Below the pieces are notes generated by a model. The model was not told where the DNA came from. It saw only the letters and a program-made list of their open reading frames with translations, and did not search any database. The translations under genes and the position numbers were made by a program. A stretch of DNA of 64,000 bases, from contig CBDCLE010000026.1 in NCBI GenBank assembly GCA_965218585.1, positions 224,001 to 288,000 on the forward strand. The letters run 5' to 3'. Shown piece after piece: positions 14,679 to 36,100 of the stretch. This DNA is from Terriglobia bacterium. GTDB taxonomy: Bacteria > Acidobacteriota > Terriglobia > 20CM-2-55-15. Numbering within the stretch: the first letter of the stretch is position 1; each line of letters starts with the position of its first letter.

Positions 14679-14752
14679 GCATCCAACAATATGGGAGATG
14701 CAAGGAAAAAGCAATGGAGAGAGGTTTCAAAATTGACCACTACCGGAATTCG

Positions 14753-14821
14753 GGTAGTGGTCTAGTTTCCATTTCAAAGGGCATCAGTACAGCTACTTTC
14801 GTTCCAAACTAGACCAGTACC
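14753..14821. mobile_element. 69-bp miniature element with IS1-like ends
   Basis: GGTAGTGGTCTAGTTT ... AAACTAGACCAGTACC inverted ends. Confidence 0.7.
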
Positions 14822-14953
14822 GATTTCCAGGAGGTTCCACTGATTGACATGCCAGCTAAGTCGCTGATTGTTCGTCCTGTCTAGAATTGATTTCGCGTCT
14901 AAAAAGAGTGAATTCCGGTTAACTTGACAGTGCCTCAGTCACTCATTGATCCT

Positions 14954-16846: not shown

Positions 16847-19800
16847 GGTTATGTTTCAGAGTTTCTGCAAAAAGGCCCTGAAATAGGAAGGGGCCAGGGT
16901 ATCTCCGAAAAGTTGGTAACCAACAACTTTGAAACGAAGGAGATGAACCGATGGCCCGAACTAAGATTAAGCGAAAGGGAGTGGATTGGAAAGAACTGTT
17001 AGGAGAGGAAAAGGATCTGCTGAAAAGCGTCGTGCAGGAGGTGGTTCAGGAAATTCTCGAGGGGGAGATGGAGCAGGTTGTGGCCGCGGCCAAGAGTGAA
17101 CGAACGGCGAGGTCGTTCCAATCGGTGTGTAAAAAGAGAAGGCGGTGTACGCTTTCGGTGAATTCGAAACCGTAAGCAATCCCGGCAGCAATCGGGAGAA
17201 AGGTACACCACCCATGAAGAAGAAGAACATACCGGCATCAGTGGCGTCAACGAACGCGTATGAAGGTTTGGAGGACTGGGCGCGATCCCGGGTCCAAGTC
17301 TGGCTACAGGAGCTGCTCGAGGACGAAGTCACTCAATTTTCTGGGTCGGGAAAAGTCGGAGCGGAGTCCGAATCGACGAGGATACCGGAACGGTCACGGG
17401 AAGCCGCGACGCTTCGCAATGATGAACGGTACGATGGAGGTTCGACGACCTCGGGTTCGAAACACCGCCGAGCGGTTCGAGAGTCAGATCCTGCCGTATT
17501 TTCGACGGAAATCGAAACAGCTGGGCGAGCTACTTCCCGATCTCTACCTCCACGGTCTGGCCACAGGGGACTTCGAGCAGGCCATGCGCGGACTGCTTGG
17601 CGCTGGCGCTCCGTTGTCGCGAGCATCGATCCAACGACTGAAATCGACCTGGCAGTTGGAGTATGACGAGTGGGTCCAGCAGGACCTGTCCGGCCTCGAG
17701 GTCGTGTACCAGTGGGCAGACGGCTTGTACGTGAAAGCGGGGATCGCGAAAGAGCGAGCGGCATTGCTGGTGATCATCGGAGCCTTGTCAGACGGGCGCA
17801 AAGTGGTGTTGGCCTGTGAGAGCGGGCAGCGGAAAAACAAGGAGTCCTGGAGCCGCATTCTGCGCAATCTCCAGAGACGGGGCCTGAAGCTGGGACGGCT
17901 GACTGTCGCGGACGGTCACCTGGGCATCTGGTCCGCGCTGGCCGAGCAACAGCCCCAGGGCCAGGAACAACGCTGCTGGAACCACAAGTCGATCAACGTG
18001 GTCGATCATCTGCCGAAGACCGAGCAGCCCGCGGCCAGACAGCTGCTTCATGGGATGGCCTTCGCGAACTCCCGCGCGGCCTGCGAACGAAAGCGGGATC
18101 AGTTCGTCCGCCGATATGAGAAGAACTATCCCAAAGCGGGTGAGACGCTGTTGCGGGACTGGGACCGGATGATTACTTTCTATGAGTTCCCGAAACAACA
18201 CTGGGTGCATCTGAGAACGACCAACATCGTCGAATCGCCCTTCGACATGGTTCGTCTCCGCACCAACGCCGCTCGCCGATTCAAGCGTGTCGAGAATGCA
18301 ACGGCAATGATCTGGAAGCTACTACGTGTCGCTGAGAAGGCTTGGCGACACTTAAAAGGATCCGAACTCTTACAAGAGGTCTATGATGGTCAGCAATTCG
18401 CTGACGGCATCAGAGTCGTGATGAAATCGAAGGCCGCCGCCTGATGACTTTTACACACCTTTTGTAATGACCTCCGAACGGCGGGGCGGACCGGATATCG
18501 GAGTGGCTATTACGGGCGGGACCTGGTCACGCGGGTGGGCAAGCTGGAGCTGCGCGTGCCGCAGGACCGGGCCGGGCGGTTCAGCACGGAAGTGTTTGAA
18601 CGCTACCAACGCAGCGAGAAAGCTTTGGTGGCCAGCTTGGCGGAGATGTACGTGCAGGGCGTGTCGACGCGCAAGGTCAAGGCCATCACCGAAGAATTAT
18701 GCGGGCATTCGTTTTCGGCCAGCACGATCAGCCGGATTAATAAGACACTGGACACGGAGCTGAAAAAGTTTGCGACGCGAGCATTGGAGGAAGAATACCC
18801 GTACCTGATTCTGGATGCGCGCTACGAGAAGGTGCGCGAAGACGGGGTCATCCGGAGCCGAGCAGTTCTGGTGGCGATCGGAATCAACTGGGACGGGAGG
18901 CGCGGTGTGTTGGCGGTGGAACTGGCGGAACGGGAAAGCACGACCAGTTGGCGGGAACTGTTACTGAGTTTGAAACAACGCGGCTTGTGCGGCGTGGAGT
19001 TCGTGGTGACCGACGATCATGCCGGGTTGAAGAAAGCCATCGCAGAAGTCCTGCCCGAAGCGATCTGGCAACGCTGCTACGTCCACTTTCTGAGAAACGC
19101 ATTGGATTATCTGCCGCGCAAAGCCGATGACGATTGTCTCCAGGAACTGCGTTGGCTCTACGACCGGCGGGACCTCCAGGAAGTGCGGCAGGACCTGGCG
19201 ACATGGTTGAGCAAGTGGGGGCAGAAATATTCCAAACTCTGCGACTGGGTCGAAGACAATATCGACGAGACACTAAGCTTCTACACGCTGCCGCTTCAGC
19301 ATCACAAACACATGAAATCCACCAATATGCTGGAACGGCTCAACGAAGAGATCAAACGGCGAACGCGCGTGGTGCGGATATTCCCCAACGCAGCCAGCTG
19401 TCTGCGTTTGATTCGGGCGCTGACCACCGAAACGCACGAGAACTGGATCGAAGCGATCCGCTACTTGAACATGGACCTGTTGAAGGAACACAAAAGGGAC
19501 TGGCACCGTCAGACGCCGGCTGCCTAAACGCGTCCCAACGGGCCGACCCAATGATCGACTCGGATGTCGATCGGCGATTACAGAGCATCCTGGAGCGAAC
19601 AATCGCTGTGGAAAACTTTCGAGGGGACGAAAGAAAGAAAAAGAACCAAAAAAGAAAGAAACGCAGAGGCCTGATGGAAATGACGCCTCAGAGGAAATCC
19701 GCCAAAAGGCGCGGATTCCCTCTGAGGCTTGGAAAAGCTTCGCCAAAAACGCTCAGCATTCCCACATTCCCACAGGCCCGACGGCGATCGACACTCAAGA

Positions 19801-20247: not shown

Positions 20248-21078
20248 GGTTGTGTTGCAACTCTGGCCGACGGCGGCTGTTAACCTGAAGAGATCATGAA
20301 AAAGACAATCCGACCGGTGATCTTCAAATGGCGACAAACCGAGCCCGCGCTGGTTCTTTGCGCCGTGCGCTGATACCTGCGGTACTCGCTCTCGTCCCGT
20401 GATGTCGAAGAGCTGCTCAGCGAACGCGGCCTGAAGGCGGACCACACGACAATCTGGCGCTGGGTCCAGCGCTACGGTCCCGAACTGGAGGCGCGGTTGC
20501 GCCGTCATCTCAAGCCAACCAATCAGTCCTGGCGCGTCGATGAGACCTACGTTCGTGTCAAGAGTCGTTGGTGCTACCTCTACCGAGCCATCGATTCCAC
20601 CGGCGCCACGATCGACTTCGTGCTCTCGGGGGTGCGCGATGCCGCTGCGGCCAAACGCCTGTTCCGTAAGGCGCTGACGGATCCGTCGCATCCACAGCCC
20701 CGGGTTATCAATACGGACCAAGCACGCCTCTATGGCGCGGCGATTTCAGGAGTGAAGCAGGAAGGACTCCTGCGACGCCGTTGCCGCCACCGACCTGTTC
20801 AATACTTGAACAACATCCTGGAGCAGGATCATCGAGCGATCAAACGACGCGTGAAGGCCAAGCAGGGCTTTCGTGAATTCCACGCGGCGCGGCGAACAAT
20901 CCAGGGATACGAGGCCATGAACATGATCCGGAAGGGGCAGGCGAGGCGGGTCAGCGGTTCGGATGTTCGGCAACAGATTCAGTTCATCAACATGCTGTTC
21001 GAGGTGGCTGCATGAGACGGAGCTTGGTCGACCCAACCAGTCGCTCTCTTGCTGATTTTTGAAAGTTGCAACACATCC
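20248..21078 (+). mobile_element. IS6-family element; transposase 20296-21015 has an in-frame TGA at 20371
   Basis: IRs GGTTGTGTTGCAACT / AGTTGCAACACATCC; WRVDETYV, YLYRAID, YLNNILEQDHR; AVR*YLRYSLS. Confidence 0.92.
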
Positions 21079-21103
21079 CGCGAAGTGTGGTATGAACTAA
21101 AGG

Positions 21104-21505
21104 ATGTCAGAACTTGCAGAAGCAACTGGAGAAGTACTTGGACAACATCTGATCGCCGACATGACGGGGTTGTCCCCTGTCCTCCTGCGTGATGGTGATC
21201 GGATCATGCATGTTCTTAACGACGCGTTGGCGCTGGCAGGCTTTCACTCCATCAGGAGCGTGGAACATCACTTCGTCGAGCGTGGCGCGGGATTTACGGG
21301 GATGGTCCTTTTGGCGGAATCCCATGCCGCCGTTCATACCTATCCCGAGCAGGAATACCTCGCGCTCGACATCTTCGCTTGCGGCGGTATCGATCCATCC
21401 ACCGTCATGGACGCGTTGGTTCGAGAGCTGAGTCCTACAGCAGTCGACGCACGGACTCTGACACGCGCTCCTCGCGCCAGCATTCCCGCGGACAGAAAAT
21501 CTTAA
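21104..21505 (+). CDS. speD: S-adenosylmethionine decarboxylase proenzyme
   Basis: GQHLIAD, LLAESHAAVHTYPE (pyruvoyl cleavage site E|SH), LDIFACG. Confidence 0.92.
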   Translation: MSELAEATGEVLGQHLIADMTGLSPVLLRDGDRIMHVLNDALALAGFHSIRSVEHHFVERGAGFTGMVLLAESHAAVHTYPEQEYLALDIFACGGIDPSTVMDALVRELSPTAVDARTLTRAPRASIPADRKS

Positions 21506-21558
21506 TCCGCGGGATATCACCTGAAAATGTTCGGGGTGAGGCCGGATTCGGCCTACCC

Positions 21559-22566
21559 TCAGAAGGTCCACACGATCAGGATCGAAGCGCCGATGTAGCC
21601 GAACGCTTCGAGGAGGCCCGCGCCGATGTTTGGATGTTCCTGCGTCTGCTCGTCAGCAAGGTTAACGCCGGACGCCAGCAAGATGTCCGTAAATTTGTGG
21701 ACTAGGAACAACATGATGAACCCAAATACCACGTAGACGGCGAATTGGAGCAGGCTATCGGTCCAACCGGTGAAATCGCCGCCGACTGCCACACTGATGA
21801 CATTGCCGATACCGATGAGCGCCCCTCCGAACGCCAGGCCCACCGCGGCGTTGTCTCGCTCCAGTTCTTCAAGGAACTTGTACGGGGTCATCAGCTCGTA
21901 CAGTCGTCCGGCGACCACCAGCACCACCTGAGCGAGTAGCCAGAAAGCCAGCAGGATCAGCATGCCGGAACCCAGGTCGCCGAATGTGCTCGATGTCCGA
22001 GAAGCTTCCCCTGAATCACCCGCACTGGCGCCAAGAATGATCAGACCGTTGGCGATGTATACGCCGGCCTCGACGAACCCCACGCCGAGGTTGCGATCTT
22101 GGACAACCTCTTTGGTGTTGTTGAATGTAGCCAGAAGGATCTTCTCGCACATGACGCTTGCAAGAAGCATGAGGACGATCGCGGAAAGACCGTAGACGCC
22201 GATCGTAACCACGTCCGTTCCGAGGCCCTGTGTTTCGCCCGAAATCGCCCCACCGAAAGCGATTAGAATTCCAAAGTAAAATCCGACCGTGGAAACTGCG
22301 AGTGCCAGGTTGTCCCGGCTGAAGAGTTCCTTATTCAAATCCACGCGCCGATACAGACTGGAATAAGCAAACTTCGCGATCCACAAGAGAACAAACGCTT
22401 CGAGGATATAAACGAAGGATTCGGCAATCAGGTAAAGATTGTCCGCCAGAGAAACCTGCGCCGGCAGTGGAATAGAAGTCTGCGCGGAGAGGGCAAATTC
22501 CAGTCCGGTGATTACTGGGGCGGCTAACAGAAGTGCGGCGGCGTGAAAGGCCGGCTGTTTGCTCAT
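21559..22566 (-). CDS. Membrane protein with tandem DUF350 domains
   Basis: Repeated EL...N.AV/ALG motifs (ELFSRDNLALAV, EVVQDRNLGVG, ELERDNAAVG, EQTQEHPNIGAG); about 8-9 TM segments. Confidence 0.85.
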   Translation of the reverse strand: MSKQPAFHAAALLLAAPVITGLEFALSAQTSIPLPAQVSLADNLYLIAESFVYILEAFVLLWIAKFAYSSLYRRVDLNKELFSRDNLALAVSTVGFYFGILIAFGGAISGETQGLGTDVVTIGVYGLSAIVLMLLASVMCEKILLATFNNTKEVVQDRNLGVGFVEAGVYIANGLIILGASAGDSGEASRTSSTFGDLGSGMLILLAFWLLAQVVLVVAGRLYELMTPYKFLEELERDNAAVGLAFGGALIGIGNVISVAVGGDFTGWTDSLLQFAVYVVFGFIMLFLVHKFTDILLASGVNLADEQTQEHPNIGAGLLEAFGYIGASILIVWTF

Positions 22567-22598
22567 AGTAAAATTCCTGTTGTGTCGTCGATCGCGGA

Positions 22599-23354
22599 TC
22601 ATTTCCCCAGGCTGCGTCCCCCCGAGGCCGCCCGACTGGCTGCTCTGGCTTGGAAACGCGACTGTTTGGCTTGATACCTCTGAGAGAAAGATGGACGCGT
22701 TGTGGCCGTCGACGTACCGTTCGCGCCGAAGGTGGGCCGCCCTCCGGTCTGAGGGCCGTAATAGGGCTGTCCGCGATTCCTCGAACCGGCGTAGGAGTCG
22801 TAGTCCCCCCGATTGATCTGGTGACCACCCAGCGCGGCGCTCATGAACGCGTACTGCCCGTAAAAGATCCAGAAACCGCCGGGACCAAAGTAACCGTATT
22901 GGCTCCGGCCCACATGCTGATAGTAGGGAGGGTGGCTCTGGTCATAGCCGGTCAAGGTGCCATCCGCATTCTTTGCGGCCACGACCATGCCGATGGATCG
23001 TTCATAGCGGTCCACCAGCCTGTCGGAAATGGAATACGTGTTCACCCGTTCATCAAACTGAGCCGCTTCTCCCTCGTCGGGATCCTCTCCGATCGGCTCG
23101 GTGACCTGGTAGCTGCTCTTGAGCGACATGCGATTCCGCAGAAACCCGTCTTGGACGTCGTCTACGATGATCGAATACTCGGAATACTCGGCAAGCTCCT
23201 GCACCAGCCTGGGAACCGGGTCACCCCTGGAGAGCAAGCCGCCGACTAACCAGAACCCCACGAGTATTACGACCACGACCATGCCCGCCAGGAGCCAGAA
23301 CTCCTGGTTTGTCTGCCTGGTGGGCATTCTTAGATTTCTTGGATCATTTCTCAT
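22599..23354 (-). CDS. Conserved hypothetical single-TM protein with aromatic/Gly motif and Arg/Ser/Gly-rich tail
   Basis: N-terminal TM; PPYYQHVGRSQYG..FWIFYGQYAFMS; tail SRAASGGRSLGK. Confidence 0.75.
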   Translation of the reverse strand: MRNDPRNLRMPTRQTNQEFWLLAGMVVVVILVGFWLVGGLLSRGDPVPRLVQELAEYSEYSIIVDDVQDGFLRNRMSLKSSYQVTEPIGEDPDEGEAAQFDERVNTYSISDRLVDRYERSIGMVVAAKNADGTLTGYDQSHPPYYQHVGRSQYGYFGPGGFWIFYGQYAFMSAALGGHQINRGDYDSYAGSRNRGQPYYGPQTGGRPTFGANGTSTATTRPSFSQRYQAKQSRFQARAASRAASGGRSLGK

Positions 23355-23365
23355 ACTGCTAGTTC

Positions 23366-23917
23366 CTATGCATTCCCACTCGGCAGGATGTTCGTGAATT
23401 GATACTCTCCCACATATTCACCAGCGACGGCCTTGAAATCCCTTTCTCCGTACTGCGTTACGAACAGCACATTCGTTCCTGAGTCATCACAGTAGGTCCA
23501 ACTAATGAAGCTTTTGCCCGGGCCTGTGGCGTTTTCATGGAACAGACCCGCGCCGCTCTCCATCAGCCTATGGTTCCGCCCATTGTAGGTCAAGTGATTG
23601 GGGGGATCTTCATGTCGGAGGGTATGTTCAATGACGTCCTCGGAGAATTGGCTGATAGAAATGCTTTCTGTCAGCGTCCAGGAAGTTTCGCCGTCACTAT
23701 CAGCGCGCTCCAGGTAGACGACCTTGCCGGAGGTCTCGATCACCCATTCCTTGGTCTCGCATCCGGAGTAGTCGTAGGTATTGTACGCTTTGACCTCCCA
23801 TGTCTCCATATCGTAATCAACCAGGTATCCAGCCTTCATTGCGCCCAACCGATAGTCCACCAGCGAATCGGATTCCTCATCGTCACCCCCCCGGCCAAAC
23901 CATTCTTTCAATCCCAT
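23366..23917 (-). CDS. DUF4178-like protein
   Basis: G.LVDYD..TWEV...YDY...EW, PP..LTYNG, WTY.D, FVTQYGE.DF. Confidence 0.75.
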   Translation of the reverse strand: MGLKEWFGRGGDDEESDSLVDYRLGAMKAGYLVDYDMETWEVKAYNTYDYSGCETKEWVIETSGKVVYLERADSDGETSWTLTESISISQFSEDVIEHTLRHEDPPNHLTYNGRNHRLMESGAGLFHENATGPGKSFISWTYCDDSGTNVLFVTQYGERDFKAVAGEYVGEYQFTNILPSGNA

Positions 23918-23945
23918 TGTTTAATTTTCCCCGGGGAGCATCGGA

Positions 23946-25538
23946 CTACCATCGAGCGAGATCTTCGCGATAATACCTCGCGAGAGTCGGTTGTTCCAAG
24001 GTATTAGGCTCGACCTCAACACGGGTCATGTCCGCATCGAAATCAAAATTGGCCAAGAACAACTCCTTGGTCAGGTAACGCAGCCCGGGCATAAACTGAA
24101 CGCTGGCAGGATCGATCGGTGCCTCGGACCCGATATGAAAGCCCCATTCGCCGAAGGAAGGTACGTAAGCGTGAAATGAGAGCACCTCGAGATCCGCTTC
24201 TTCCATCGATTTGCCGATACACCAGTAGGCCTGGCGCGTGTAGTAAGGGCTCGTCGCCTGAGCAATTACCACTCCTCCGGGAGCCAGATGCCGACGAATA
24301 AGCTTGTACGCTTCGACCGAGAACAGTTTTGAGATCTCTTCTTCTCGCGGATCTGGAAGATCGATTACGACCACCGAATAGGGTTCGTGTTCCCTCTGCA
24401 GAAAACTAAACCCATCTTCGTTAATCACCCGGACCCGGGGGTGGCTCAGGGCGTTCCGGTTCAGGTCGGTAAAATAGAGATTGCGCCTGGCCAGCGTCGT
24501 CATAGCCGGATCGAGGTCCACCAGCTCGATCTCTTCCACCTCTGAATACCGCAGGATTTCACGAACGGCGAGCCCGTCACCGCCGCCGACGACCAGAACC
24601 CGTGCCCGGCTATGCGAAAATGCCATGGCAGGGTGGACCAGCGCTTCGTGATACCGGTACTCGTCGACTGAGGAGAACTGTAGGTGCTCGTTCAAAAAGA
24701 GTCGGGTTTCGTCCTTCCAGCGCGTAACCACAATCTTCTGATATTCGGTCTCCGTGCTGAAAACCACCTGGCCTTCGTAGAGGGAATCTTCCCACCGATC
24801 CATCAGGGGTTGGGCTTGACTTGCAAATACGGCCAACACAGCAGAAATCAGGACGCCCTGGACGACGAGTCGTGCCCGGTCTCCGGCCGATATTTCGGCC
24901 CACACGGCGAGAAGGATGGCCGAACCGGCGGCAACGTTGAGGGCGCCGGCAAGGAGTGATGTATGAAACGCCCCGAGAACCGGCAAACAAAAGAATGGGA
25001 AGAGAACAGCGGCGACCAGAGCGCCAACGTAATCGACCGAAAGCACATTCGACAGGATCGTCCGCAACGATCCGTGTCTTCGTAGGATCCGTGTGAGGAG
25101 TGGGATCTCCAGTCCGATGAGCGTGCCGATGATCAGGATGATGACCAGCATCAGGTATTTGTAGACGCTGGTGTAAGCGTTCGCGAGGTACAGAGCGGGA
25201 ACTGTCAGACCTCCGAACAATCCGAGCCACAGTTCCAACGCCACCAACCGCCGGATCAATTCCCCGTGAACGGCCCTCGAGATCCACGAGCCCAGGCCCA
25301 TCGCGAACAGAAAGAATCCGATCGTCAGCGAGTACTGCTCGACACTGTTGCCCAGGAAATACGACGAGATACTTCCGACCAGTAACTCGTAGACGATTCC
25401 GCACGCCGCGGCGACGAAAATCGATGCGAGTATCAGGAACAGACCCAGCCTCGACAGCCTCTCTTCTCCCGACCCGACATCGTCGAACTCTAGTTCGTTG
25501 GGGGTGAGATTGGTGTCAGTTGTCTTGGTGATGCTCAT
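23946..25538 (-). CDS. speE: Membrane-anchored polyamine aminopropyltransferase (spermidine synthase-like)
   Basis: About 7 N-terminal TMs (ACGIVYELL); LQFSSVDEYRYHEALVHP, VVGGGDGLAVRE, IDLPDP, YVPSFGEWGF. Confidence 0.92.
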   Translation of the reverse strand: MSITKTTDTNLTPNELEFDDVGSGEERLSRLGLFLILASIFVAAACGIVYELLVGSISSYFLGNSVEQYSLTIGFFLFAMGLGSWISRAVHGELIRRLVALELWLGLFGGLTVPALYLANAYTSVYKYLMLVIILIIGTLIGLEIPLLTRILRRHGSLRTILSNVLSVDYVGALVAAVLFPFFCLPVLGAFHTSLLAGALNVAAGSAILLAVWAEISAGDRARLVVQGVLISAVLAVFASQAQPLMDRWEDSLYEGQVVFSTETEYQKIVVTRWKDETRLFLNEHLQFSSVDEYRYHEALVHPAMAFSHSRARVLVVGGGDGLAVREILRYSEVEEIELVDLDPAMTTLARRNLYFTDLNRNALSHPRVRVINEDGFSFLQREHEPYSVVVIDLPDPREEEISKLFSVEAYKLIRRHLAPGGVVIAQATSPYYTRQAYWCIGKSMEEADLEVLSFHAYVPSFGEWGFHIGSEAPIDPASVQFMPGLRYLTKELFLANFDFDADMTRVEVEPNTLEQPTLARYYREDLARW

Positions 25539-27241
25539 TGAACTGCGTCCGTCTCTCCGGATAGCCCCTTGATCGATGATTCGAATGTCCTGCCGAGGCA
25601 CTCCAGGACCTGTTCGGCCGCCCGGATGCCGGAAAAACAGGCTTCTTCGAACAGCGGCAGTCCTGTCGTGTCACACGAGGCGAAATACACGTTTCCGGCA
25701 GGCTCCCTCCGAGTGACGCTTTCTAGGCCCCATATGAGTCCCGGCCTCGGCCGGATCATGGCGTGACCCCACCGGTAAACGTCGATGCGGTCTACGACAC
25801 GCTCCAGGTCCGGATGGGCCACCAGTAGGTCCCGCATGATCACGTTGACCCAGTACGGATGTTCTTCTTCAAGGAGCTTCCTACGAGCAAGGTCGATGTC
25901 CTCGACGAACGGTAGATAGTAAACCAGGACCGATGGGTTGTCTCTGTAGACCTGCCGGGTTTGATGATCAGCGACAATGTAGCCCAGGGATTGGCTGTCG
26001 CCGAGCACATTGTCCCACGCGATCGAGACTTCGGCGTTTGTGGGCAACTCGCTCACGTGGATACTGGCGGTCAGCCATGGGCTGTAATCACAAGATTCGA
26101 TCGCTTCTACCTGGGGCCCTGGCAATCCATCGACCAGGAAAGGCGCGGTGTGGAGCTTGGAGGCATGGATCACGGTTCGGGCCGAAATAGTGCGATATGT
26201 CTCACTCGGTGTATCGAAGTAGCCGACCCGAACGCCGGAATTGTCGTTATCGATGTTGTCGATCCGGAGCACCGTGCATCCGAGCCGGTATTGCGAGTCC
26301 TCCAGGTCTTGAGCTAAGCGTTGTACGAGAAACCCGTTTCCCGCGGGCCACGTCAACGTATCCGAAGGGTACTGGTCCCACAGCCGCTTGTCGTAGTATC
26401 GGCAGGCGAAATAGTGAATGCCGGCCCAGGCCGACACGGTTGCCATCGTGCTCCCGTAATCGTCCCGGCAAGCATGGTTGATCATCCAATCCAACCGTGG
26501 CGAATTCCATCCTTTGGAGCGGACGTAGGTTTCCATCGAAATGTTGTCGAGTTCACGAACCCGGGAGTCCGTGGTGCTGTAGCTGAGAGGGAGTGAGAAT
26601 GCGCGCCGGCCGTCAAAACCACGGTAAAGCGTCCAGGTCAGCATGTCGTCCTCAAAAGCAAGTATGGCTTCCCGGTCCTGGGTTGAGGCCCCGGCGAGCA
26701 GATCCCATTCGATCCATCTTCCGTCCATGAAGAGACGTTCGGTGGGCCATCGCAGGATATGTTGTTCGGGAATCCTCGGCCGTCCGGCCTCATCGTAGCC
26801 TTCGATGATGCCCAGGTCGGACAGGACTTCTTTGACGCAATCCGCTTCCGCGGGCGGAATATTGATGTAGTGTGCCGCCCAGGGGAATTCCGCGCCCTCT
26901 GCGCTTCCGGACGCGGATGTGCCTCCAAGCCAGGGCTCCAGTTCGAGCAGGACAAGGTTGTCCAGTCCGGCTTTCATCAGCTTCCAGGCTGCGCACAGTC
27001 CAGAAACGCCACCTCCGACGATGGCGACGTCGTAGGTATGAGCATCAGGCTCGGGAAACCGATCGCGAGGGCGAGGTTCGCGAAGAAGATGCCCCGCCTG
27101 CTGGCCCCCGCCCACGATTTGCCCCGGGATATTGAAGGTCCTCGGAGGCGGAGTGCCTGAATTCCAGCACGAAGGCACGACCGCCAGGAGGCTGCCGGTC
27201 GCGGAGAGGCGAATGAACCGACGGCGTGTAAAGAACGACAT
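25535..27241 (-). CDS. FAD-dependent amine oxidase family protein with Tat/lipoprotein signal
   Basis: TRRRFI twin-arginine, VVPSC lipobox-like motif, GGGVSGL Rossmann motif, CRDDYG..VSAWAGIHYFA, RWGHAM, LPLFEEA. Confidence 0.9.
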   Translation of the reverse strand: MSFFTRRRFIRLSATGSLLAVVPSCWNSGTPPPRTFNIPGQIVGGGQQAGHLLREPRPRDRFPEPDAHTYDVAIVGGGVSGLCAAWKLMKAGLDNLVLLELEPWLGGTSASGSAEGAEFPWAAHYINIPPAEADCVKEVLSDLGIIEGYDEAGRPRIPEQHILRWPTERLFMDGRWIEWDLLAGASTQDREAILAFEDDMLTWTLYRGFDGRRAFSLPLSYSTTDSRVRELDNISMETYVRSKGWNSPRLDWMINHACRDDYGSTMATVSAWAGIHYFACRYYDKRLWDQYPSDTLTWPAGNGFLVQRLAQDLEDSQYRLGCTVLRIDNIDNDNSGVRVGYFDTPSETYRTISARTVIHASKLHTAPFLVDGLPGPQVEAIESCDYSPWLTASIHVSELPTNAEVSIAWDNVLGDSQSLGYIVADHQTRQVYRDNPSVLVYYLPFVEDIDLARRKLLEEEHPYWVNVIMRDLLVAHPDLERVVDRIDVYRWGHAMIRPRPGLIWGLESVTRREPAGNVYFASCDTTGLPLFEEACFSGIRAAEQVLECLGRTFESSIKGLSGETDAVQ

Positions 27242-27254
27242 TGCTGGATGATAC

Positions 27255-27956
27255 TCAGATGCCCATCTTCTTCTTGAGCTCAGCCAGCGAGTCGCTGGTC
27301 TCGGCCGAGCTGGGCACCGCAAGGGTTCTGTCTATCTCCTGGTCCAGGGTGACGCTCGCGTCGGTCATGTCTCCGTAAGACTCGGCAAGCGACTCCTCCT
27401 CTATCACTTTGTCCTTCATCCTTTCCAGTAGTGCAATCGTACTGGAGGAGTCGACGTTCGACATCTGCTGGTTGATTTTCCGCATCGATGTCGCCGTCTT
27501 GGCACGGGCTCTCAAGGTCACCAACTCGGTCTCGAAGCGGCTGATGGTTTCCTTCAGAGTTCCCACCTTCGCCTGGAGCTGATCCCCCATGGATTTCTGC
27601 TGCTCGTAATCCTTCTTTAAGGAACCTGAGCGTTGGAGAGCCTCCTCCTTCTTGGTCAAGGCTTCAGTTGCCAGACGTTCCGCGTCAGCTTCGGGCAGAT
27701 CCCCACTCTTCATTTTCTGGAGAAGAAGCATCGCTTTTCTTTCGTAATCCTTCGCAAGCTTTTTCTGGTCGTCCGAGTCTTTCTTGAAACGAATTGCGAT
27801 CGCTTTAACTTGCGCCAGACTCTGCATGGAGCCCTGCAGGTCTTTCTTCAGGTCGCGAATTCCCTGCTCGCTCATCTTGATCGGATCTTCGAGCTTATCC
27901 ACGACCGAATGTGCCTGGGACTGTACGTTTTTGAAAATTCTTTGAAAAAAACTCAT
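27255..27956 (-). CDS. pspA: PspA/IM30 family protein
   Basis: MSFFQRIF amphipathic N-terminus, DKLEDPIKMSEQGIRDL, long coiled coil, LAELKKKMG. Confidence 0.93.
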   Translation of the reverse strand: MSFFQRIFKNVQSQAHSVVDKLEDPIKMSEQGIRDLKKDLQGSMQSLAQVKAIAIRFKKDSDDQKKLAKDYERKAMLLLQKMKSGDLPEADAERLATEALTKKEEALQRSGSLKKDYEQQKSMGDQLQAKVGTLKETISRFETELVTLRARAKTATSMRKINQQMSNVDSSSTIALLERMKDKVIEEESLAESYGDMTDASVTLDQEIDRTLAVPSSAETSDSLAELKKKMGI

Positions 27957-28372
27957 TTGTCAGCTCCCCCCGACTGTCGGTAACTAAATTCCAGCAACTC
28001 TGGGCCGTTTTCGGCCAGGGCAAGCTCCAGCGACCGGATGGAGCCTTCCAACTCGTTACAATCCAGGTTTTCCAATTGCAAGGTATCGCGGAAAAGGACG
28101 CGGTTACCCTCTTCGTCGTCGAGCACAAACGCTCCATGTACCATGGTTCGGTTCATCTGGAGGAGGCGTTTGAAGAAATCTCCAGCATCCTCGGGGACGT
28201 CCATGATGAGTTGTTCGAGGATGACGATTGGGGGTTCGCAGTCAATGATCAGGTTATGAATCCCATTCTCCTCATCCCCCACCACGATCAACTCTTCGGC
28301 TTCATCCTCGCTGACGATCTTCAGATCGATGTCGAGCAGATAGCCCTTCACCAAGTCTAGGTTCTCGGACAT
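27953..28372 (-). CDS. YbjN/CesT-like (T3SS-chaperone fold) protein
   Basis: LLQMNRTMVHGAFVLD, VLFRDTLQLENLD.NELEGSI.SL; 4-bp overlap with pspA. Confidence 0.8.
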   Translation of the reverse strand: MSENLDLVKGYLLDIDLKIVSEDEAEELIVVGDEENGIHNLIIDCEPPIVILEQLIMDVPEDAGDFFKRLLQMNRTMVHGAFVLDDEEGNRVLFRDTLQLENLDCNELEGSIRSLELALAENGPELLEFSYRQSGGADK

Positions 28373-28374
28373 GT

Positions 28375-28764
28375 TTACTTCTCCTGTCTGTTTGTCTCGC
28401 TCTGGGACCGCTTCCGCAGCCGCTCGTAAGCACCGTTCAACCGTTGCGTCAGTTCATCGGCTATTCTTCGTTTCTCGAGATCTTTCGAATGCAGATCCGG
28501 GTGGTATTTCCGTAACAGCCGTATCCATGCCTGCCGGACCGTGGTAAGGCTGGAACCATAGGGCACCTCCAGGTTGGAATAGAGCTCGGCCAACTCTGAA
28601 TCGATACGCTGGGCGTTAGATTCTGTATTTCTGCTACCGTGGCCCAGCCCGTGGGCCCGAGTCTGCCTTTGGCGTCCACGTGCCCGATCAGCGTAAATCC
28701 GTCCGTTCGAGCCAGCGTGGAGCTGGGCTCGAATGAAGCGGATCACGCGGGTCACCAGTTTCAA
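28375..28764 (-). CDS. Small protein with C-terminal DnaJ J-domain
   Basis: YSNLEVPYG...VRQAW..LLRKYHPDLH...LNGAYERL. Confidence 0.8.
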   Translation of the reverse strand: MKLVTRVIRFIRAQLHAGSNGRIYADRARGRQRQTRAHGLGHGSRNTESNAQRIDSELAELYSNLEVPYGSSLTTVRQAWIRLLRKYHPDLHSKDLEKRRIADELTQRLNGAYERLRKRSQSETNRQEK

Positions 28765-28893
28765 CCAATCAGCTCCCTCGAAGACAGGTTCTCAAAGACG
28801 ACATTGCGACCTCATCAGAATCATAACTCAATAGGTTATATTTGGCGGTATTGGTAATCTCGCGTTCGTCAGTGAAGGGATGACTCGATCACC

Positions 28894-29952
28894 ATGCTCA
28901 GGTTGATTATGGAATGGTTCCGGCGCTTCAGGCCGGAAAGACATGGCGAAACCGGTAAGGTAATCCTCTTGTTTTCCGCCCTGATCGCCTTGGGTGCGGT
29001 CGGTTATAGACTTTTCGAGGGTGCTGTCGATCCCGAGCTGTCCTGGAACGATGCCATTTGGTGGTCGATCGTTACGATGACGACCGTGGGATACGGGGAC
29101 TATTTTCCAACGACCGTCTACGGTCGCTACCTGGTGGCGATTCCAGTGATGTTTGTCGGCATCGGCATCCTTGGCTACCTGCTCTCGGTGATGGCAACTA
29201 CGTTGATTGAGTCGAGGTCAAAGGAGTTGAAAGGCATGACGGATCTCCGCGTTGAATCCCATGTGCTCGTAGTGAATTTTCAGAGCGAAGGCCGGAATCT
29301 AGAGATTGTCAAGGAGCTGCGGGAGGACTCCAAGACAAAGGACCTTGCAATAGTGTTGGTCGATGACCACCTCGACGAGCTGCCGCCCGAACTGGGGAAA
29401 CTGGGTGTCCGTTTTGTGAAGGGCAACCCATCGAGGGGAAGTGTCCTGCGGCGCGCATGCGTCGACAAGGCGCGTTATGCAATCGTTCTTGCCTCGGAAG
29501 TGGACCAAGTGCGCGCCGATGACCATACTCTCGCCGCGGTCCTTACAATCGAATCGATTAACCCTAACATCTTCACAGTCGCCGAATGCCTCGACCCTGA
29601 GCGTGTGGAACTGATGCGCCGATCGGGATGCGATAGCGTGGTCTGCGTGTCCGGTCTCGCATCGTCCTTCTTAGTTCAGGAGGTTTGCGATCCTGGCATG
29701 CATGCAGTCGTCAACGAACTGATGTCAAATAGATTTGGTCAACAGGTCTACATCGTACCGGTTGAACAAATGCAAAACTGGGAATTTTCTGAGCTGCAGG
29801 CACATCTTTCACAAAAAGGGTGCCTTGTATTGGGAGTACAACGCGGCAGCGAGGCCCTGCTCAACCCAGGGAATGCGTACAAGATCGAAGCGAGCGATCA
29901 CGTCATCTGTATGGGGCCACACAGGCCCGTTCCGGTTCGGATCTCGAGCTAA
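28894..29952 (+). CDS. 2-TM potassium channel with TrkA-N/TrkA-C (RCK) domains, MthK-like
   Basis: WWSIVTMTTVGYGD selectivity filter; FVKGNPS..VLRRA RCK motifs. Confidence 0.93.
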   Translation: MLRLIMEWFRRFRPERHGETGKVILLFSALIALGAVGYRLFEGAVDPELSWNDAIWWSIVTMTTVGYGDYFPTTVYGRYLVAIPVMFVGIGILGYLLSVMATTLIESRSKELKGMTDLRVESHVLVVNFQSEGRNLEIVKELREDSKTKDLAIVLVDDHLDELPPELGKLGVRFVKGNPSRGSVLRRACVDKARYAIVLASEVDQVRADDHTLAAVLTIESINPNIFTVAECLDPERVELMRRSGCDSVVCVSGLASSFLVQEVCDPGMHAVVNELMSNRFGQQVYIVPVEQMQNWEFSELQAHLSQKGCLVLGVQRGSEALLNPGNAYKIEASDHVICMGPHRPVPVRISS

Positions 29953-30123
29953 CGATCCTTGGTCGGTGACTGCGCCTTAGAACGCTTCCAGAACGCGGAT
30001 AGTCCTAACACCAGAACGCCCACTGAGATTGCTCCACAAACAACACCCCAGAACCAATACGGCAAGAATAACTGTCGCGGTCCTAGCTGTACAAATGGCA
30101 CTCAGTGTTTTCTCTCGCGCGGA

Positions 30124-30435
30124 CTATCTTTTCACCAAGACTGCGACGACTGGTGCGGGAGCTATGCCATCCGACGTTGCACAGCTCGCAGATCTACTAC
30201 CGCATCCAGAGTCGGCTCCAACTTCGGCCAAGTCGCGGTAGGCAACGCTGCGATACATCCCCACGTCCGCTACGGCCCGCCTCACACGCCCCTCGAACGT
30301 CTGATGATCCGTGCGCGGATCGTATTCGCGCCGGTGGCCGTCACGCTGCCGCTGTTCTCGCTCCTTCGCGTGGTCGCGCCTGGGGCGGGTGAAGCTCCTG
30401 CGGGAGTCAGGCGTGAAGTCTCGCGGATCGAACAT
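30124..30435 (-). pseudogene. Probable truncated plasmid/ICE protein
   Basis: Follows the ArdC remnant with an AGGA RBS; Arg-rich then ADVGMYRSVAYRDL; C-terminus looks non-native. Confidence 0.35.
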
Positions 30436-30444
30436 GGTCCTTCC

Positions 30445-30771
30445 TTACCGGCCTGGCCCCATGTCTCTCTGCTGTTGTTGCGCGGGCTGCTCGGTGGGTT
30501 GCTTCGGGGTGTGGCTGATTTGCGGACCCCGGGCGTGAGAGTATTGCCGGGTCCACTCCGCCGCCGTCTTCTCCTGGACCGGTGCTTCAACCTCGCGCTC
30601 AATCGCACGATCCACCAGGTAATCGCTCATCTTCTGCGCGTCCCGGGCCGCTCGATGAATCTCATGCGGGTCTTTTTCCAGGACTTCGAGCCAACCCTTC
30701 ACATAGGCGGCTCCGCGCTGCGGGTCATGCCCCACACCAATGCGCTCCCCCGTCATCATGGCGCTGGTCAC
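30445..30771 (-). pseudogene. C-terminal fragment of ArdC-like antirestriction / zincin-like protein
   Basis: AAYVKGWLEVLEKDPHEIHRAARDAQKMSDYL resembles the ArdC C-terminus; N-terminus missing. Confidence 0.65.
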
Positions 30772-31055
30772 GCTATATTGAATTTAAGTAATTGATAACA
30801 CTAGATATGTTGGCAACGCGTCCACTATGATTCCCTCATCAGACCCCTCTTTCTGAACGGGAATCCATTGGACCTTAGAAGACGTCCCTAGACCGCACAG
30901 CGTCCCATGAGAGGGCGGAGCCGGTCCGGTCCCTGTCGGGCAGGGCGGTCGATGGGCAAGACGGGAGTGTCGCTAGATTGGAACCCTCGCGCCGAGGATC
31001 CTGATGAGGGCACGGATTTAACTTCACACACGGAGCGATTCCTACGCGGACCTAG

Positions 31056-34000
31056 GAGCCTGCGCCGTAGGACGATTTTCGACTCGGCGAATTTCGCGAT
31101 ATGGCGATTGATCGGTATCGGTGACCGGGGAATGGGCGTTTTGGACGACGAGGCGCCGATGGGTGCGCCACGGGTGCTTGAATCGACCCTCGTTCGGCCT
31201 GATTTGCGGGCGGTATCCCTGTCATCAGGCTGCCTGAAGCCCCTGCATCCGCTTGACGTTCAATGCCAGACACACCAAGTTCCACTCGCCCTGGACCTTG
31301 TTCAGGCCGCGCAGGCTGAATCGGCGGGAGTAACGTAAAAGTTGTGTTTCGTGATTTCCAGTTGAGAGAGAATGATAGATTCGTCGTCCGGGCTGTGGGA
31401 ACTGTGCGGACGCCGGAGGTGTTCCAAGGGCCTGTGGAAATCATCAAGAAGAAGCCGCCGAAGGCGACCGATTCCCCCGATTTCCATAGGCCCGGCAGTT
31501 TCCACAGCCCCCGTCGCCCGCTGAAATTGAAGCGGGCTCCAGTTCACGCTGGAGCCCTAGACCTGAGTCATCAGTTATTCAGTTATGGAGTTGAACCCAA
31601 TGTCTACAGATCCGAATGAAAGCGTACCATCAGAACAGATTTCTGAATCCACAAAAACACAGATCCAGACCCTGCTGGCCTCCGGGCTGGCCGATCTGAG
31701 CCTGCGCGAGGTACTGGGGACCCTGTTGTCGGGCCTCAGTGTGGCCGAACGGGACCTGCATCTTGAACACCGCCCCGACGACCGTCCCAATGGTTTTTAC
31801 GATCGCTCCCTCCAAGTGGGCAGCGTTCCGATCGATATCCGTGTCCCTCGAACCCGTAACGGGGATTTCCGTCCCGCGAACCTACCATCCCCGTATCAGC
31901 GCGGCTACCCTGAAGAAGTCGAGTCCATCTTGCTGGGACTGCTGGCCTCATCCCGTTCGGTCAATGCGGCCCGGGAGGCGCTTCAGAAGATGGGCCTGTC
32001 CGGGTCCCAACAGGATCTGGAACGGGTGGCGTCGGGCCTGATCGAAGAACTCGATCTTGGCAACAGCCGGCCACTGGACACGGATCTGCTGGCCCTATTC
32101 GTGGATGGCAAGTACGTCGAACTCCGCGACGGCGACCGGCTGCGTCCGGCCTGTATCTACCTGGTGGTGGGTCTAGGCCGCGACGGCAAGAAGCGTGTCC
32201 TGGCCTGCATTGCCAAACCCGGCCGCGAGAATCTCGAAGACTGGAAGGGGGTTCTCCGCTCTCTGATCGAGCGCGGTCTCCGACGCGTCATGATCTTCGT
32301 CCAGGACGATTTCTCCGGCCTTCTCAAGGTCAGCGAAGGCTTCTTTCCCAATGCTGATATCCAGCTCTGTACCGTCCACATGCAGCGCAATGCTAAGAGC
32401 CATCTCTCCAAATCCGACGCCGCCGAGTTTCAGCAACGCTTCCGTGCCATCAAGTCCTCCTGGTGTGAGGATGTCGGCAACCAAGGGTTCGAGGAACTCT
32501 GTGACCGCTTCGCCCAGCACTATCCCTCCTGGATCGCGGGGCTCCGCAAGAAACGGACTCACTATCTCGCCTTCCTCAAGTATCCCGACCTCATGCGCAA
32601 ATCGTTTTCCACCACCAACCTCGTCGAGGCCGTCAACGGACAACTGGAAATTATGCGCCGCAATTCGGGCGGCTACTTTCACTCCGAAGACACCCTCAAG
32701 TTCAAACTCGGCTTGGCCGTCTCTCACCTCCACAACGGCCGTTGGAAATCTCCGGCCACTTCCATCCATTCCGCTCTTCATCAGCTCAACGCCATGTTCC
32801 AATCCCGCTTTGAGGAGGACTTATGATCCCCTCCTCAAACACAACTTTCTTGACAAGAGCCGAATCGGCGGAAGCCGAGCACCTCCTTGATCCACCCGTT
32901 GGGCGCCTCCGACAGCCATTTGCGCTGGGCGTACTGCACCCGTCCCGCCTCCATCGACAGCTTCTCGGCCATGCGGGCCTTCGCCGGATGCCTGGCGGCG
33001 TCTACCGCGACCGCGCGCCGGCCCTCCCGGCCCAAGGCCACATAGCCGTCCACGCCGCGCGCCTCCAGCGCCTCCAGGTCGTCCTCGTTGCAGTAGCCCG
33101 CATCCGCCAGCACCGTCTCGGGCCGTTCCCCATGGGTGGCCTCCACCTCGTCCACCAACGGGACCAGCCGACCCTGGTCGCTGGCGTTCGACGACACCTC
33201 GGTGGCGACGATCAACTGCTTCTCTCCCTCCACCGCCACCTGCGCGTTGTAGCACTGCTGAAAACCCTCCGATGAGGTCTTCATGATCCGGCTTTCGGGA
33301 TCGGTGAAGTTGTCCTGCGCCTTCTCGTCCGGCTCGCCGTATTCCCGCTTGTAGGGCCGCCCGCTCTTCCGGTTGCGCTTCGAACCGGGCTCGCGTCCCC
33401 GCGCCTCGTCGGCCTCCCGTTGCCTGGCCTCCAATCGCGCCCTGGCCGCCCGGATCGCCGCCAGCCGATCCTCCCGGCGGCGCAACTCCTCGGGTAACTC
33501 ATCGCCGCGATGCGCCTCCCCGAAACGCGCGTCCTCCGCCGCATCGGTCTCCCGCGCGCGCGACAGCAACGCTTCGATCTCGCCCTCCAGGCGCCGCTCC
33601 TCCTCCTGCATCCGACCGTAACTCATCGCCTTGCGCTTGCTGGCATTGGCTCGAACCTTCGTCCCGTCGATCGACAACTTGCCGAAGTTCCCAACCCCGG
33701 TCTCGCGCGCCAGACCGACCACCTCCACAAACAGCGCCTTGAAATCCGACAAATGACGCCGGCGAAACTCGCAAATCGTCCGATGGCTCGGAAAATTCCC
33801 CGCCGCCAACACCCGAAATGCCACGTCCTCCTCCAGCTTCCGCGCCAGCCCTCGGGACGAAAACACCCCCGTCGCGTACCCGTAGATCAGCACCTTCGCC
33901 ATCATCCGCGGCTCATACGGCGACTTGCGACGACCGTCCCCCTCGTAAGGCGCGTAAAACGCCGTCAAGTCCAATCCGTCCACCAGATCGCTCACATGGT

Positions 34001-34149
34001 GTGCCAAGTGCCCCTCCGGCAACCAATCCCGTATATCCGGCGCCAGCAGCAACCCCTGCTCCGGCTGGTACGGGCGAAACGTCGTCGGCATCGCATTCTC
34101 CTCCTAACTGCGACACTATTATCTCATTCACTTCCTACGGCGCAGGCTC
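31056..34149 (-). mobile_element. IS1182-family element; transposase (34091 to 31225) interrupted by IS256
   Basis: IRs GAGCCTGCGCCGTAGGA / TCCTACGGCGCAGGCTC; CTAG TSD; IDGTKVRANAS, TDPESRIM, LADAGY; tail FSLRGLNKVQGEWNLVCLALN beyond the IS256. Confidence 0.93.
31326..32861 (+). mobile_element. Third IS256 type (transposase 31585-32826)
   Basis: 8-bp TSD GAATCGGC; IRs ..AAAGTTGTGTTT; RVPRTRNGDF, FVDGKY, QLCTVHMQRN, TTNLVEAVN. Confidence 0.93.
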
Positions 34150-35161: not shown

Positions 35162-36100
35162 TAGTACTACTATGTTACAAACGAAGCGGTCCACAGAACG
35201 GACAACGAGGAAGCTGCTGAATCAGGAAGCGGGCGATGCGAATGCGAAGCGTGGCAATCGAGCAGGGGTTATGTCGTTCGGGCCGGATCCGGGGTTCCGC
35301 GGGGTTTGAAGTGTTTGGGGAGTTTGGGGACGGATAGTCCAACATGCTCGACAAATGCAGAGGGGGAAAAACGGCTCCGCTCGGCGACCAGGAACCCATA
35401 AGAGGCTTGTAGTTGTTGCCGTAGGCCGTATCGCCCAGAACCGGTGCCGGAGCAATGCCGTCATCGACGGCCTGCCGGATTTGTTCCAAAGCAATTTGAG
35501 GTTTAGTTTGAAATCGAACGTCTTCGGGAATAGCGGCTTTGCTTCGACGTTCCGGATCCTTCGCCCAGGTCTCGGGGAGGTAGAGTCGCCATGCCACCGG
35601 CAAGCTGGATTTCGCTGTCGCCACCGACAGGCTCACCGCCACCCGGCAGTTCTCAGGTTTGCCGACCTGTCCACAGTATTGCCGGGCCACACCCACCGAG
35701 TGGGTCCCCTTTTTCACGAATCCGGTGTCGTCGACAATCCAGGCTTCAATCGGACCGTTGGCTTCCATCGCCCCCAGCGCGTACTGTCGAACTTCTGCCA
35801 ACAGAGCCGCATCGTCCCAGGGCGCATCCGCGACCAGATGATGTAGCGACTGGTGCATTCGGCGTACATTATCCGGAGCCAATCGTGCAGCCATCGGCTC
35901 CACACTCTTACGTTTGATCGGCAGCAACAACCCGGTGCAGTACGACTTCAACGGTTCATGACGATCGGCGTGTCCTGCGGCCGACGCCAGGCGTTCCAAA
36001 TAGGCCGCAAAACGTTTTTCCTGAGTGCCTGGCGCCTTCGATTTGGCGCTCATGACCGGATGCTAACATAAAATAGACCGTTTGTAACATAGTAGTACTA
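35162..36100 (-). mobile_element. IS701-family element, internally deleted (transposase remnant 35175-36053)
   Basis: 22-bp IRs TAGTACTACTATGTTACAAACG; RKSVEPMAA, VDDTGFVKKG.HSVGVARQYCG; only about 940 bp, similarity lost after DTAYGN. Confidence 0.88.

Follow-up and report, generated by a model that had tools for sequence, protein, structure and literature searches.

The 64,000-nucleotide stretch of DNA analyzed here (henceforth termed the window) derives from a Terriglobia bacterium of the Acidobacteriota and corresponds to positions 224,001 to 288,000 of contig CBDCLE010000026.1 in GenBank assembly GCA_965218585.1. It contains a compact cassette of ten genes, in which the bacterial ESCRT-III protein PspA/IM30 is encoded together with a small J-domain protein, a potassium channel, and enzymes of polyamine-type chemistry. 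The cassette is a horizontally mobile unit composed of two separable modules, and we propose that it might maintain the cell envelope from both faces of the membrane. Gene calls based on open reading frames (ORFs) and on Pfam and NCBIfam profile searches yielded the following genes, listed with their positions in the window:

21104-21505, plus strand: speD, class-1b-type S-adenosylmethionine (SAM) decarboxylase (TIGR03330, 99.1 bits with a cut-off of 75.65; PF02675)
21559-22602, minus strand: tandem DUF350 (YjfL-family) membrane protein (PF03994, 1.7e-47, two stretches)
22599-23354, minus strand: exported protein with a single transmembrane (TM) segment and a Gly-Lys end, henceforth GK protein (no Pfam or NCBIfam family)
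23366-23917, minus strand: DUF4178 protein (PF13785, 4.9e-15)
23946-25601, minus strand: TM-fused aminopropyltransferase (NF002956, 608.9 bits versus 472)
25535-27322 as the listed ORF, 25535-27241 from the likely start, minus strand: flavin amine oxidoreductase (PF01593 over the full length)
27255-27956, minus strand: PspA/IM30 (PF04012, 1e-41)
27953-28372, minus strand: small acidic CesT_Tir_1/YbjN-like protein (PF22550, 4e-49)
28375-28764, minus strand: small J-domain protein (PF00226, 31.5 bits versus 27.8)
28894-29952, plus strand, divergent: TVGYG/RCK K+ channel (PF07885, PF02254, PF22614)

With later start codons assigned to two of them, the eight minus-strand genes are spaced between a 4-nt overlap, as seen where the CesT-like gene and pspA adjoin, and a 28-nt gap. 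The oxidase most likely starts later than its longest ORF, at an ATG at 27241 (MSFFTRRRF) located 13 nt past the pspA stop codon. For the transferase, the most likely start is the ATG at 25538 rather than the listed GTG at 25601: the ATG overlaps the oxidase stop codon and agrees with a 530-aa ORF in the relative L003, and initiation at the GTG would create a 67-nt overlap with the oxidase gene. Since relatives carry full-length orthologues of all ten genes, equal to them in length, none of them is broken, and a pseudogenized remnant is ruled out. ORFs, profiles, and orthologues thus bear out an earlier reading of this DNA from its letters alone (the original prediction), which had described ten unbroken genes at these coordinates, eight of them tightly spaced. 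Its statement that pspB and pspC are lacking also stands, as no match to PF06667 or PF04024 was detected in the source genome (4.55 Mb, 95.5% complete), which distinguishes the cassette from the classical proteobacterial Psp system (pspFABC). The same genome contains a single PF04012 match (PspA) and a single PF02675 match (speD), the latter being the only SAM decarboxylase gene found; the ESH motif of SpeD is kept in all nine orthologues. Promoter and terminator scans of the cassette returned fewer sites than were found in shuffled sequence.

Gene neighborhoods were surveyed from two seeds. A tblastn-based collection of 57 loci seeded with the transferase includes 18 in which the eight minus-strand genes are all present and identically ordered, distributed over Acidobacteriota (9), Latescibacterota (6), and Gemmatimonadota (3). 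This co-conservation had been predicted, and because the synteny spans phyla, a chance juxtaposition of genes is ruled out. Likewise, PspA is found linked with an aminopropyl enzyme, an amine oxidase, and a K+ channel in different phyla. A second survey, seeded with the CesT-like protein, drew on a wide range of phyla and returned at least 553 loci. The 80 best were retained; 41 of these have full flanks, and four of the 80 stem from genomes already present in the transferase-seeded set. Hidden Markov models built from our own alignments identified the components in these loci as follows (best 80 CesT-seeded loci, then the 41 full-flank loci):

PspA: 78/80, adjacent; 41/41
K+ channel: 56/80, 49 directly upstream on the same strand; 27/41
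DUF4178: 62/80; 34/41
Transferase: 41/80; 26/41
DUF350: 37/80; 26/41
GK protein: 32/80; 24/41
J-domain protein: 25/80, every one directly upstream of the CesT-like gene; 16/41
Oxidase: 10/80; 8/41
speD: 10/80; 5/41

The cassette is composed of two modules, which are often joined but can be separated: one for the inner face, comprising the K+ channel, the J-domain protein, the CesT-like protein, PspA, and the DUF4178 protein, and an enzyme module comprising the transferase, the GK protein, and the DUF350 protein, with or without the oxidase and SpeD. In one Marinacidobacterales-type genome (loci L008 and L061), the two modules lie physically apart: the K+ channel, J-domain protein, CesT-like protein, and PspA are encoded at one site, and a second PspA gene is located ca. 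17-39 kb away together with the oxidase, transferase, DUF4178, GK protein, DUF350, and speD genes.

At the DNA level, the cassette has sharp limits. Homology to relatives starts at 21073-21085 and stops at 29951-30068, i.e., it extends from speD to the K+ channel gene, and the flanks are unmatched. Among 40 related genomes, long cassette matches (at least 5.4 kb) occur in three of four from the same genus, six of 20 others from the same family, and none of 16 from the same class. Cassette DNA is 5-13 points more identical than rpoB in the same genome pairs (94% vs 83% in G001, 95% vs 82% in G004, 84% vs 77% in both G006 and G013, and 81% vs 76% in G007). In addition, the cassette is bracketed by insertion sequences (ISs) in relatives, namely by two direct IS6-family copies in L004 (4632-5446 and 16193-17008 of that locus) and by two identical IS3-like copies in L003. 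An identity above that of the slow-evolving rpoB gene, the IS brackets, and the patchy distribution argue for horizontal exchange. The ca. 9-kb block from speD to the K+ channel gene is therefore a discrete, horizontally mobile unit, in agreement with the self-contained unit proposed in the original prediction. Such mobility implies a selectable function that the cassette confers on its own. The elements in and around it in the window are the following:

10693-12058, 15058-16428, and 17104-18474: three IS256-like copies, 99-100% identical
12540-14065: IS4-like element (1.5 kb) with an intact transposase at 12550-13965 (471 aa, DDE_Tnp_1_4)
18535-19527: truncated Mutator-family transposase
20317-21078, plus strand: IS6-family remnant abutting the left end of the cassette (PF13610; tblastn with the L004 IS6 transposase)
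21073-30068: mobile cassette, defined by the reach of DNA homology to relatives (blastn versus L002-L006 and L056; whole-genome searches)
31585-32826: IS256-like element
32835-34091: IS5-like element
35175-36053: partial DDE_5 element

One IS6-like remnant abuts the cassette on the left, and the ISs to its right are of different kinds. The remnant, an unrelated element, ends at 21078, where homology to other genomic IS6 copies stops. The flanks are IS-rich, as the term "IS graveyard" in the original prediction had implied, but the term itself is too strong, because several copies are intact and near-identical, which speaks for an active landscape. The 1.5-kb IS4-like element occurs in at least 35 copies in the source genome, including contigs C1, C2, C10, C22, and C24. 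A relative of this element sits between the K+ channel and J-domain genes of L056, and in the closest relative, L002, whose cassette is 96% identical, a 3.7-kb insertion (11678-15338 of that locus) separates the transferase and DUF4178 genes. Between the K+ channel gene and the next IS of the window (29953-31584, 1.6 kb), only family-less ORFs are found; the first ca. 115 bp of this interval, up to 30068, are conserved with relatives.

The transferase comprises ca. 530 amino acids (551 if counted from the listed GTG) and was modeled with AlphaFold 2 (AF2) at a pLDDT of 87.6. In the model, seven TM helices (residues 51-83, 86-108, 115-143, 147-173, 179-209, 211-232, and 239-261) are followed by a short linker helix and then by the catalytic domain. 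Among the Foldseek matches listed for the full model, only catalytic-domain homologues and none for the 7-TM domain appear; the closest structures are 1uir/3anx (wide-pocket Thermus agmatine/triamine transferase, thermospermine synthase). In 49 orthologues, Lys and Arg residues amount to 2.76, 2.98, and 2.61 in loops 2-3, 4-5, and 6-7, and to 0.04, 0.04, and 0.06 in loops 1-2, 3-4, and 5-6. By the positive-inside rule, these loop charges place the catalytic domain outside the cytoplasm, a location that we regard as somewhat favored. Invariant in the 49 sequences are G339-G343 (GGGDG, including D342) and both Asp residues of the DLPDP motif (D414 and D417); D362, D364, and D396 are invariant as well. 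Within the predicted TM helices there are four further acidic residues that never vary (E72, E123, E165, and D190), and these would suit the passage of a cationic substrate.

Canonical SpeE shares the catalytic Asp and the GxG(D/E)G motif for decarboxylated SAM (dcAdoMet) with the cassette enzyme, but is a soluble, cytoplasmic protein of ca. 290 amino acids that acts on putrescine, whereas the transferase is a 7-TM protein of nearly twice that length. Its scores fall below the cut-offs for short-form SpeE (TIGR00417, 135 vs 249.55; NF002010, 165 vs 260). The source genome contains three Spermine_synth matches, all in frames of 574-1065 amino acids, and no short canonical speE frame was seen among them; the two matches outside the cassette are located at C5:199497-199982 and C2:132845-133300 in open frames of 593 and 1065 amino acids. 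Thousands of bacterial genomes, including those of well-known pathogens, reportedly encode membrane-fused "spermidine synthases" of this kind. Work by Li and colleagues from 2019 is said to have found that such fusions yield no spermidine and fail to complement a speE mutant of E. coli, and that their genes cluster with speD and DUF350, as in the present cassette; the acceptor was reportedly concluded not to be putrescine, and none was named. That study is among those cited by Ravi et al. 2024 (PMC11237479). A precedent with experimental backing is the fungal enzyme NHMT/AN4663, which is reported to modify the terminal residue of secreted proteins by transfer of a methyl group from SAM and to require its TM domain for activity (Nat Commun 2023, PMC10349129). 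Like the transferase, NHMT combines an N-terminal 7-TM region with a C-terminal spermidine-synthase-family domain; where GxG(D/E)G has its acidic residue, NHMT carries Ile, whereas the transferase keeps GGGDG like users of dcAdoMet.

The acceptor of the membrane-fused enzyme has been sought since 2019, and the GK protein offers a concrete candidate. This protein occurs in a signal-anchor form in these Acidobacteriota and as a lipoprotein with a lipobox Cys in other phyla. Gly-Lys closes the sequence of all 58 orthologues, which represent 49 distinct tails, and is preceded by a region rich in Ser, Gly, and Arg, which is basic in the protein of the cassette. In the ESM Atlas, the protein matched unnamed lipoprotein clusters only, with DUF1190 at 0.77 as a mere lead. 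Forty loci contain the transferase without the GK protein, and in 33 of them a gene located directly upstream of the transferase gene, or overlapping it, encodes a single-TM microprotein of 56-106 amino acids with a GK end (...GGGPGSGK or similar). Overall, a GK-ending ORF lies within 3.5 kb of the transferase in 51 of the 57 loci, compared to a background of 71 among 5241 ORFs (1.35%). The six misses are accounted for by the 3.7-kb insertion in L002, start-codon choice in L017 and L018, whose orthologues do end in GK according to the tail alignment, and contig ends in L024-L026. The side chain of Lys is a four-carbon primary amine and resembles putrescine in this respect, so that its aminopropylation would generate a spermidine-like chain fixed to the protein end. 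From these sequence patterns, we tentatively suggest the C-terminal Lys of the GK protein as the aminopropyl acceptor, at a confidence that falls somewhat short of even. Relative to the aminopropylated compound of the original prediction, the aminopropyl enzyme is unchanged, but a free small molecule is a less likely acceptor than the C-terminal Gly-Lys of what had been listed as a single-TM unknown. A literature search for C-terminal-lysine aminopropylation returned nothing relevant.

We are highly confident that the cassette belongs to an already published class of operons. By comparative genomics, with function untested, Ravi et al. 2024 (mSystems, PMC11237479) described a second group of CesT/Tir-PspA operons, exemplified by AAN56744-AAN56747 of Shewanella oneidensis. 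According to their main text, this group shares with the cassette the CesT/Tir-PspA dyad, a 7-TM-fused spermine/spermidine-synthase-like domain, an 8-TM DUF350 protein, and DUF4178, and it also includes a lipoprotein. [quoted passage not shown] A possible counterpart of the novel lipoprotein of the published group ("Ctha_1186 domain") is the GK protein, whose gene is in the expected position, whose orthologues from other phyla have a lipobox Cys, and which is a signal-anchor form in the window. Ravi et al. further proposed that PspA systems monitor polyamines or the aminopropylation of other substrates (PMC11237479). What is new here is a variant with a J-domain partner that the main text on the class does not describe, along with a candidate acceptor.

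A looser parallel exists in E. coli, where yjfIJKLMC, which belongs to the third group of Ravi et al. 2024, includes a CesT-like protein (YjfI), a PspA-family protein (YjfJ), and a DUF350 protein (YjfL), with a K+ channel in some relatives. YjfC, and YgiC of the tolC-ygiBC genes, have been assigned as peptide-spermidine ligases (Pederick et al. 2023; RefSeq product names), for which the physiological substrate is stated to "remain unknown". The original prediction knew of no functional characterization of operons of this kind; function was untested in Ravi et al. 2024, but the class had already been described there, and YjfC has by now been shown to be a peptide-spermidine ligase. As in the cassette, a lipoprotein with a Ser/Gly/Arg-rich tail is encoded directly before the polyamine-type enzyme in the yjf/ygi systems. 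The enzymes themselves differ: in yjf/ygi, an ATP-grasp ligase of the cytoplasm attaches spermidine to the carboxylate of a peptide, in contrast to the dcAdoMet-type transferase of the cassette. In E. coli K-12, yjfM (8388-9026 of L141) and ygiB (3745-4416 of L142) encode DUF1190 lipoproteins with Gly-Gly ends before YjfC and YgiC, which makes YjfM and YgiB candidate physiological substrates of these ligases. BLASTP between the GK protein and E. coli YjfM gave an E-value of 1.0, i.e., no homology was shown, and phmmer searches with E. coli YjfC, YgiC, YjfM, YgiB, and YjfK retrieved no ATP-grasp ligase from all ORFs of the collected loci, so that GG and GK ends were set against the enzyme type in 32 Enterobacterales loci only.

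In the oxidase, a twin-arginine motif (S/T-R-R-x-F-L) is present in all 18 sequences and a Cys past the h-region in 17 of them, which predicts export by the twin-arginine translocation (Tat) pathway and, probably, lipid anchoring. The FAD motif (G76, G78, G81) is invariant. Foldseek searches with the AF2 model (pTM 0.82) returned as top matches a bacterial monoamine oxidase (MAO) with putrescine, MAO-A, the spermidine dehydrogenase SpdH, putrescine oxidase, and NicA2, with TM-scores of ca. 0.6-0.75 to 8p84, 1o5w, and 2yg3; phmmer matches to PDB sequences are confined to the FAD-binding ends. The protein thus appears to be an exported flavin amine oxidoreductase of MAO fold, with O2 or a cytochrome as the possible electron acceptor. 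The original prediction had placed the chemistry of the cassette at the membrane; both the aminopropyl and the oxidase steps are now predicted to occur outside the cytoplasm.

On the inner face, the J-domain protein (115-130 amino acids) consists of an N-terminal amphipathic helix, a variable linker, and the J domain; across 17 sequences, R6, R12, and the HPD residues (H88, P89, D90) do not vary. Comparing its first 22 residues with the first 22 of the cognate PspA gave a mean best 12-mer BLOSUM62 score of 18.6, compared to 7.9 +/- 0.94 for shuffled controls (maximum of 10.6 in 200 shuffles) and 6.3 for the CesT N-terminus as a control. In 12 of 17 loci, the best-matching position within PspA is N-terminal. 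The N-terminus of the J-domain protein therefore resembles helix alpha0 of PspA, although support for such mimicry is only moderate, because the 17 sequences are related. A precedent for a dedicated J-domain co-chaperone of a PspA/IM30-family polymer is found in Chlamydomonas, where the chloroplast protein CDJ2 is reported to deliver VIPP1 to HSP70B, which assembles and disassembles VIPP1 oligomers (PMC10602608). The CDJ2 gene is not located beside that of VIPP1, whereas the J-domain protein described here is small, operon-encoded, and equipped with an alpha0-like helix. By this analogy and the sequence resemblance, the J-domain protein might recruit Hsp70 to PspA, a proposal that we see as evenly poised. 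DnaJ, J-domain, Hsp70, and DnaK are mentioned nowhere in the main text of Ravi et al. 2024, nor are DnaJ or J-domain in that of Popp et al. 2022; a literature search at the level of main texts likewise found no J-domain gene tied to bacterial pspA operons. A PspA-like targeting helix on an operon-encoded J-domain protein makes it testable whether Hsp70 is what remodels PspA polymers.

Among the remaining membrane-associated components, the DUF350 protein has eight TM helices after an N-terminal signal-like segment, as judged from hydropathy, loop charges, and orthologue N-termini. The DUF4178 protein is acidic, contains neither a signal peptide nor a hydrophobic segment, and is predicted to be cytoplasmic. 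The K+ channel has two TM helices, a filter reading TMTTVGYGD, and a cytoplasmic RCK domain. Dinucleotide-binding RCK domains usually contain a Gly-rich motif; at its position, the channel reads VVNFQSEGRN, for which reason the RCK ligand may not be NAD(H).

Taken together, these data lead us to propose that the cassette is a mobile, two-sided envelope-maintenance module, an overall reading that we hold to be about equally likely right or wrong. On the inner face, PspA and its CesT/Tir-like partner would polymerize on damaged membrane, and the J-domain protein would travel to PspA sites and recruit DnaK/Hsp70 to build or dismantle the polymer. The RCK-gated K+ channel could reset the membrane potential, with the DUF4178 protein acting as a presumed cytoplasmic partner. 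SpeD would supply dcAdoMet in the cytoplasm, and the 7-TM aminopropyltransferase would move the aminopropyl group to the epsilon-amine of the C-terminal Lys of the GK protein instead of to putrescine, which would leave the outer face with a cationic cap that resembles spermidine and is carried by the protein. The invariant acidic residues of the 7-TM domain, or the DUF350 protein, may carry the cationic donor across the membrane, and the Tat-exported MAO-fold flavoenzyme might oxidize or remove the capped amine. The widest version of this proposal, which combines extracytoplasmic polyamine-like Lys capping in the cassette with spermidine ligation to a C-terminal Gly in the yjf/ygi systems and with Hsp70 as a PspA motor guided by an alpha0-mimicking J-domain protein, we consider doubtful.

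Several observations weigh against the proposed module. With regard to its unity, ca. 30 Chloroflexota-type loci of the 57 contain the transferase without the PspA set, and, conversely, eight of the 41 full-flank loci contain PspA, the CesT-like protein, the K+ channel, and DUF4178 without the transferase; as each half occurs without the other, the halves are separable and their physical coupling is only proposed. The oxidase and speD are each missing from 70 of the 80 CesT-seeded loci and are thus accessory. With regard to the chemistry, the topology of the transferase derives from the positive-inside rule and a predicted model, and we know of no precedent for dcAdoMet outside the cell and of no exporter for it. 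D417 occupies the position that binds the distal amine of putrescine in canonical enzymes, and since it is retained, a diamine-like small acceptor stays compatible. The counts for GK ends and alpha0 resemblance come from related sequences, which overstates their independence. The E. coli parallel is imperfect in that YjfC is cytoplasmic while YjfM is exported, and among 24 distinct upstream-ORF tails from 32 Enterobacterales loci, 15 end in GG and two in GS, the rest being wrong-frame or unrelated; given the close relationship of these taxa and the cytoplasmic YjfC, the GG tails are a lead and not proof.

In an alternative reading, the product of the enzyme is a small polyamine in free form (spermidine, norspermidine, aminopropyl-agmatine, or one with a longer chain) that leaves at the membrane or is exported through it, stabilizes the membrane, and is catabolized by the oxidase, with PspA sensing its level or responding to it, in keeping with the published suggestion of Ravi et al. 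2024. True polyamine aminopropyltransferases have the same catalytic residues as the transferase, including both Asp residues of DLPDP, the closest folds to the oxidase act on free putrescine or spermidine, and a short canonical SpeE frame was not seen in the source genome. Such a scheme nevertheless leaves the GK ends in 58/58 orthologues and 33/40 microprotein loci as well as the predicted outside orientation unexplained, and the lack of spermidine and of speE complementation reported for such fusions by Li and colleagues also counts against it; we regard it as unlikely, though the strongest competitor. In a second alternative, an amine of an envelope lipid or glycan serves as the acceptor, such as the head group of phosphatidylethanolamine, an amine in the peptidoglycan stem, or lipopolysaccharide, the surface charge being tuned reversibly: the transferase is membrane-fused with its catalytic domain predicted outside, and the exported oxidase could erase the mark. 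The GK protein would then be a scaffold or attachment point, for which Braun's lipoprotein, linked to peptidoglycan via its C-terminal Lys, provides a model. The cassette contains no lipid- or glycan-handling gene, however, and since only the enzyme stands beside the GK microproteins in Chloroflexota-type loci, these fit a substrate better than a scaffold, so that a lipid or glycan acceptor seems improbable to us.

An anti-phage role, as raised in the original prediction, or one in abortive infection would mean that the infected cell is killed or arrested by K+ efflux together with peroxide or aminoaldehyde released when amines are oxidized. Phage secretins induce PspA, and the patchy distribution, IS association, and horizontal transfer of the cassette are typical of defence islands, albeit not specific to them. 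However, the ten proteins matched no system in PADLOC-DB 2.0, where single hits to generic methyltransferase-fold, FAD-motif, and coiled-coil models are incidental; Pfam and NCBIfam revealed no nuclease, NTPase sensor, or toxin domain; and the 20 flanking ORFs scanned encode transposases, an integrase, and metabolic or signaling enzymes, with no known defence genes among them. We therefore drop the anti-phage role as very improbable and hold, with good confidence, that the cassette serves envelope maintenance rather than defence.

If the widest version of the proposal is correct, it would name long-sought substrates for both the aminopropyltransferase and the peptide-spermidine ligase families and identify Hsp70 as the remodeling motor of a bacterial ESCRT-III polymer. 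The C-terminal Lys as acceptor, if right, would introduce a new protein modification along with a new extracellular use of decarboxylated SAM. An Ensifer sp. plasmid (4735-8512 of L140) encodes, one after the other and without PspA, SpeD, DUF350, a GK-ending microprotein of 78 amino acids, and the transferase, and this cultured alphaproteobacterium is a possible tractable model.

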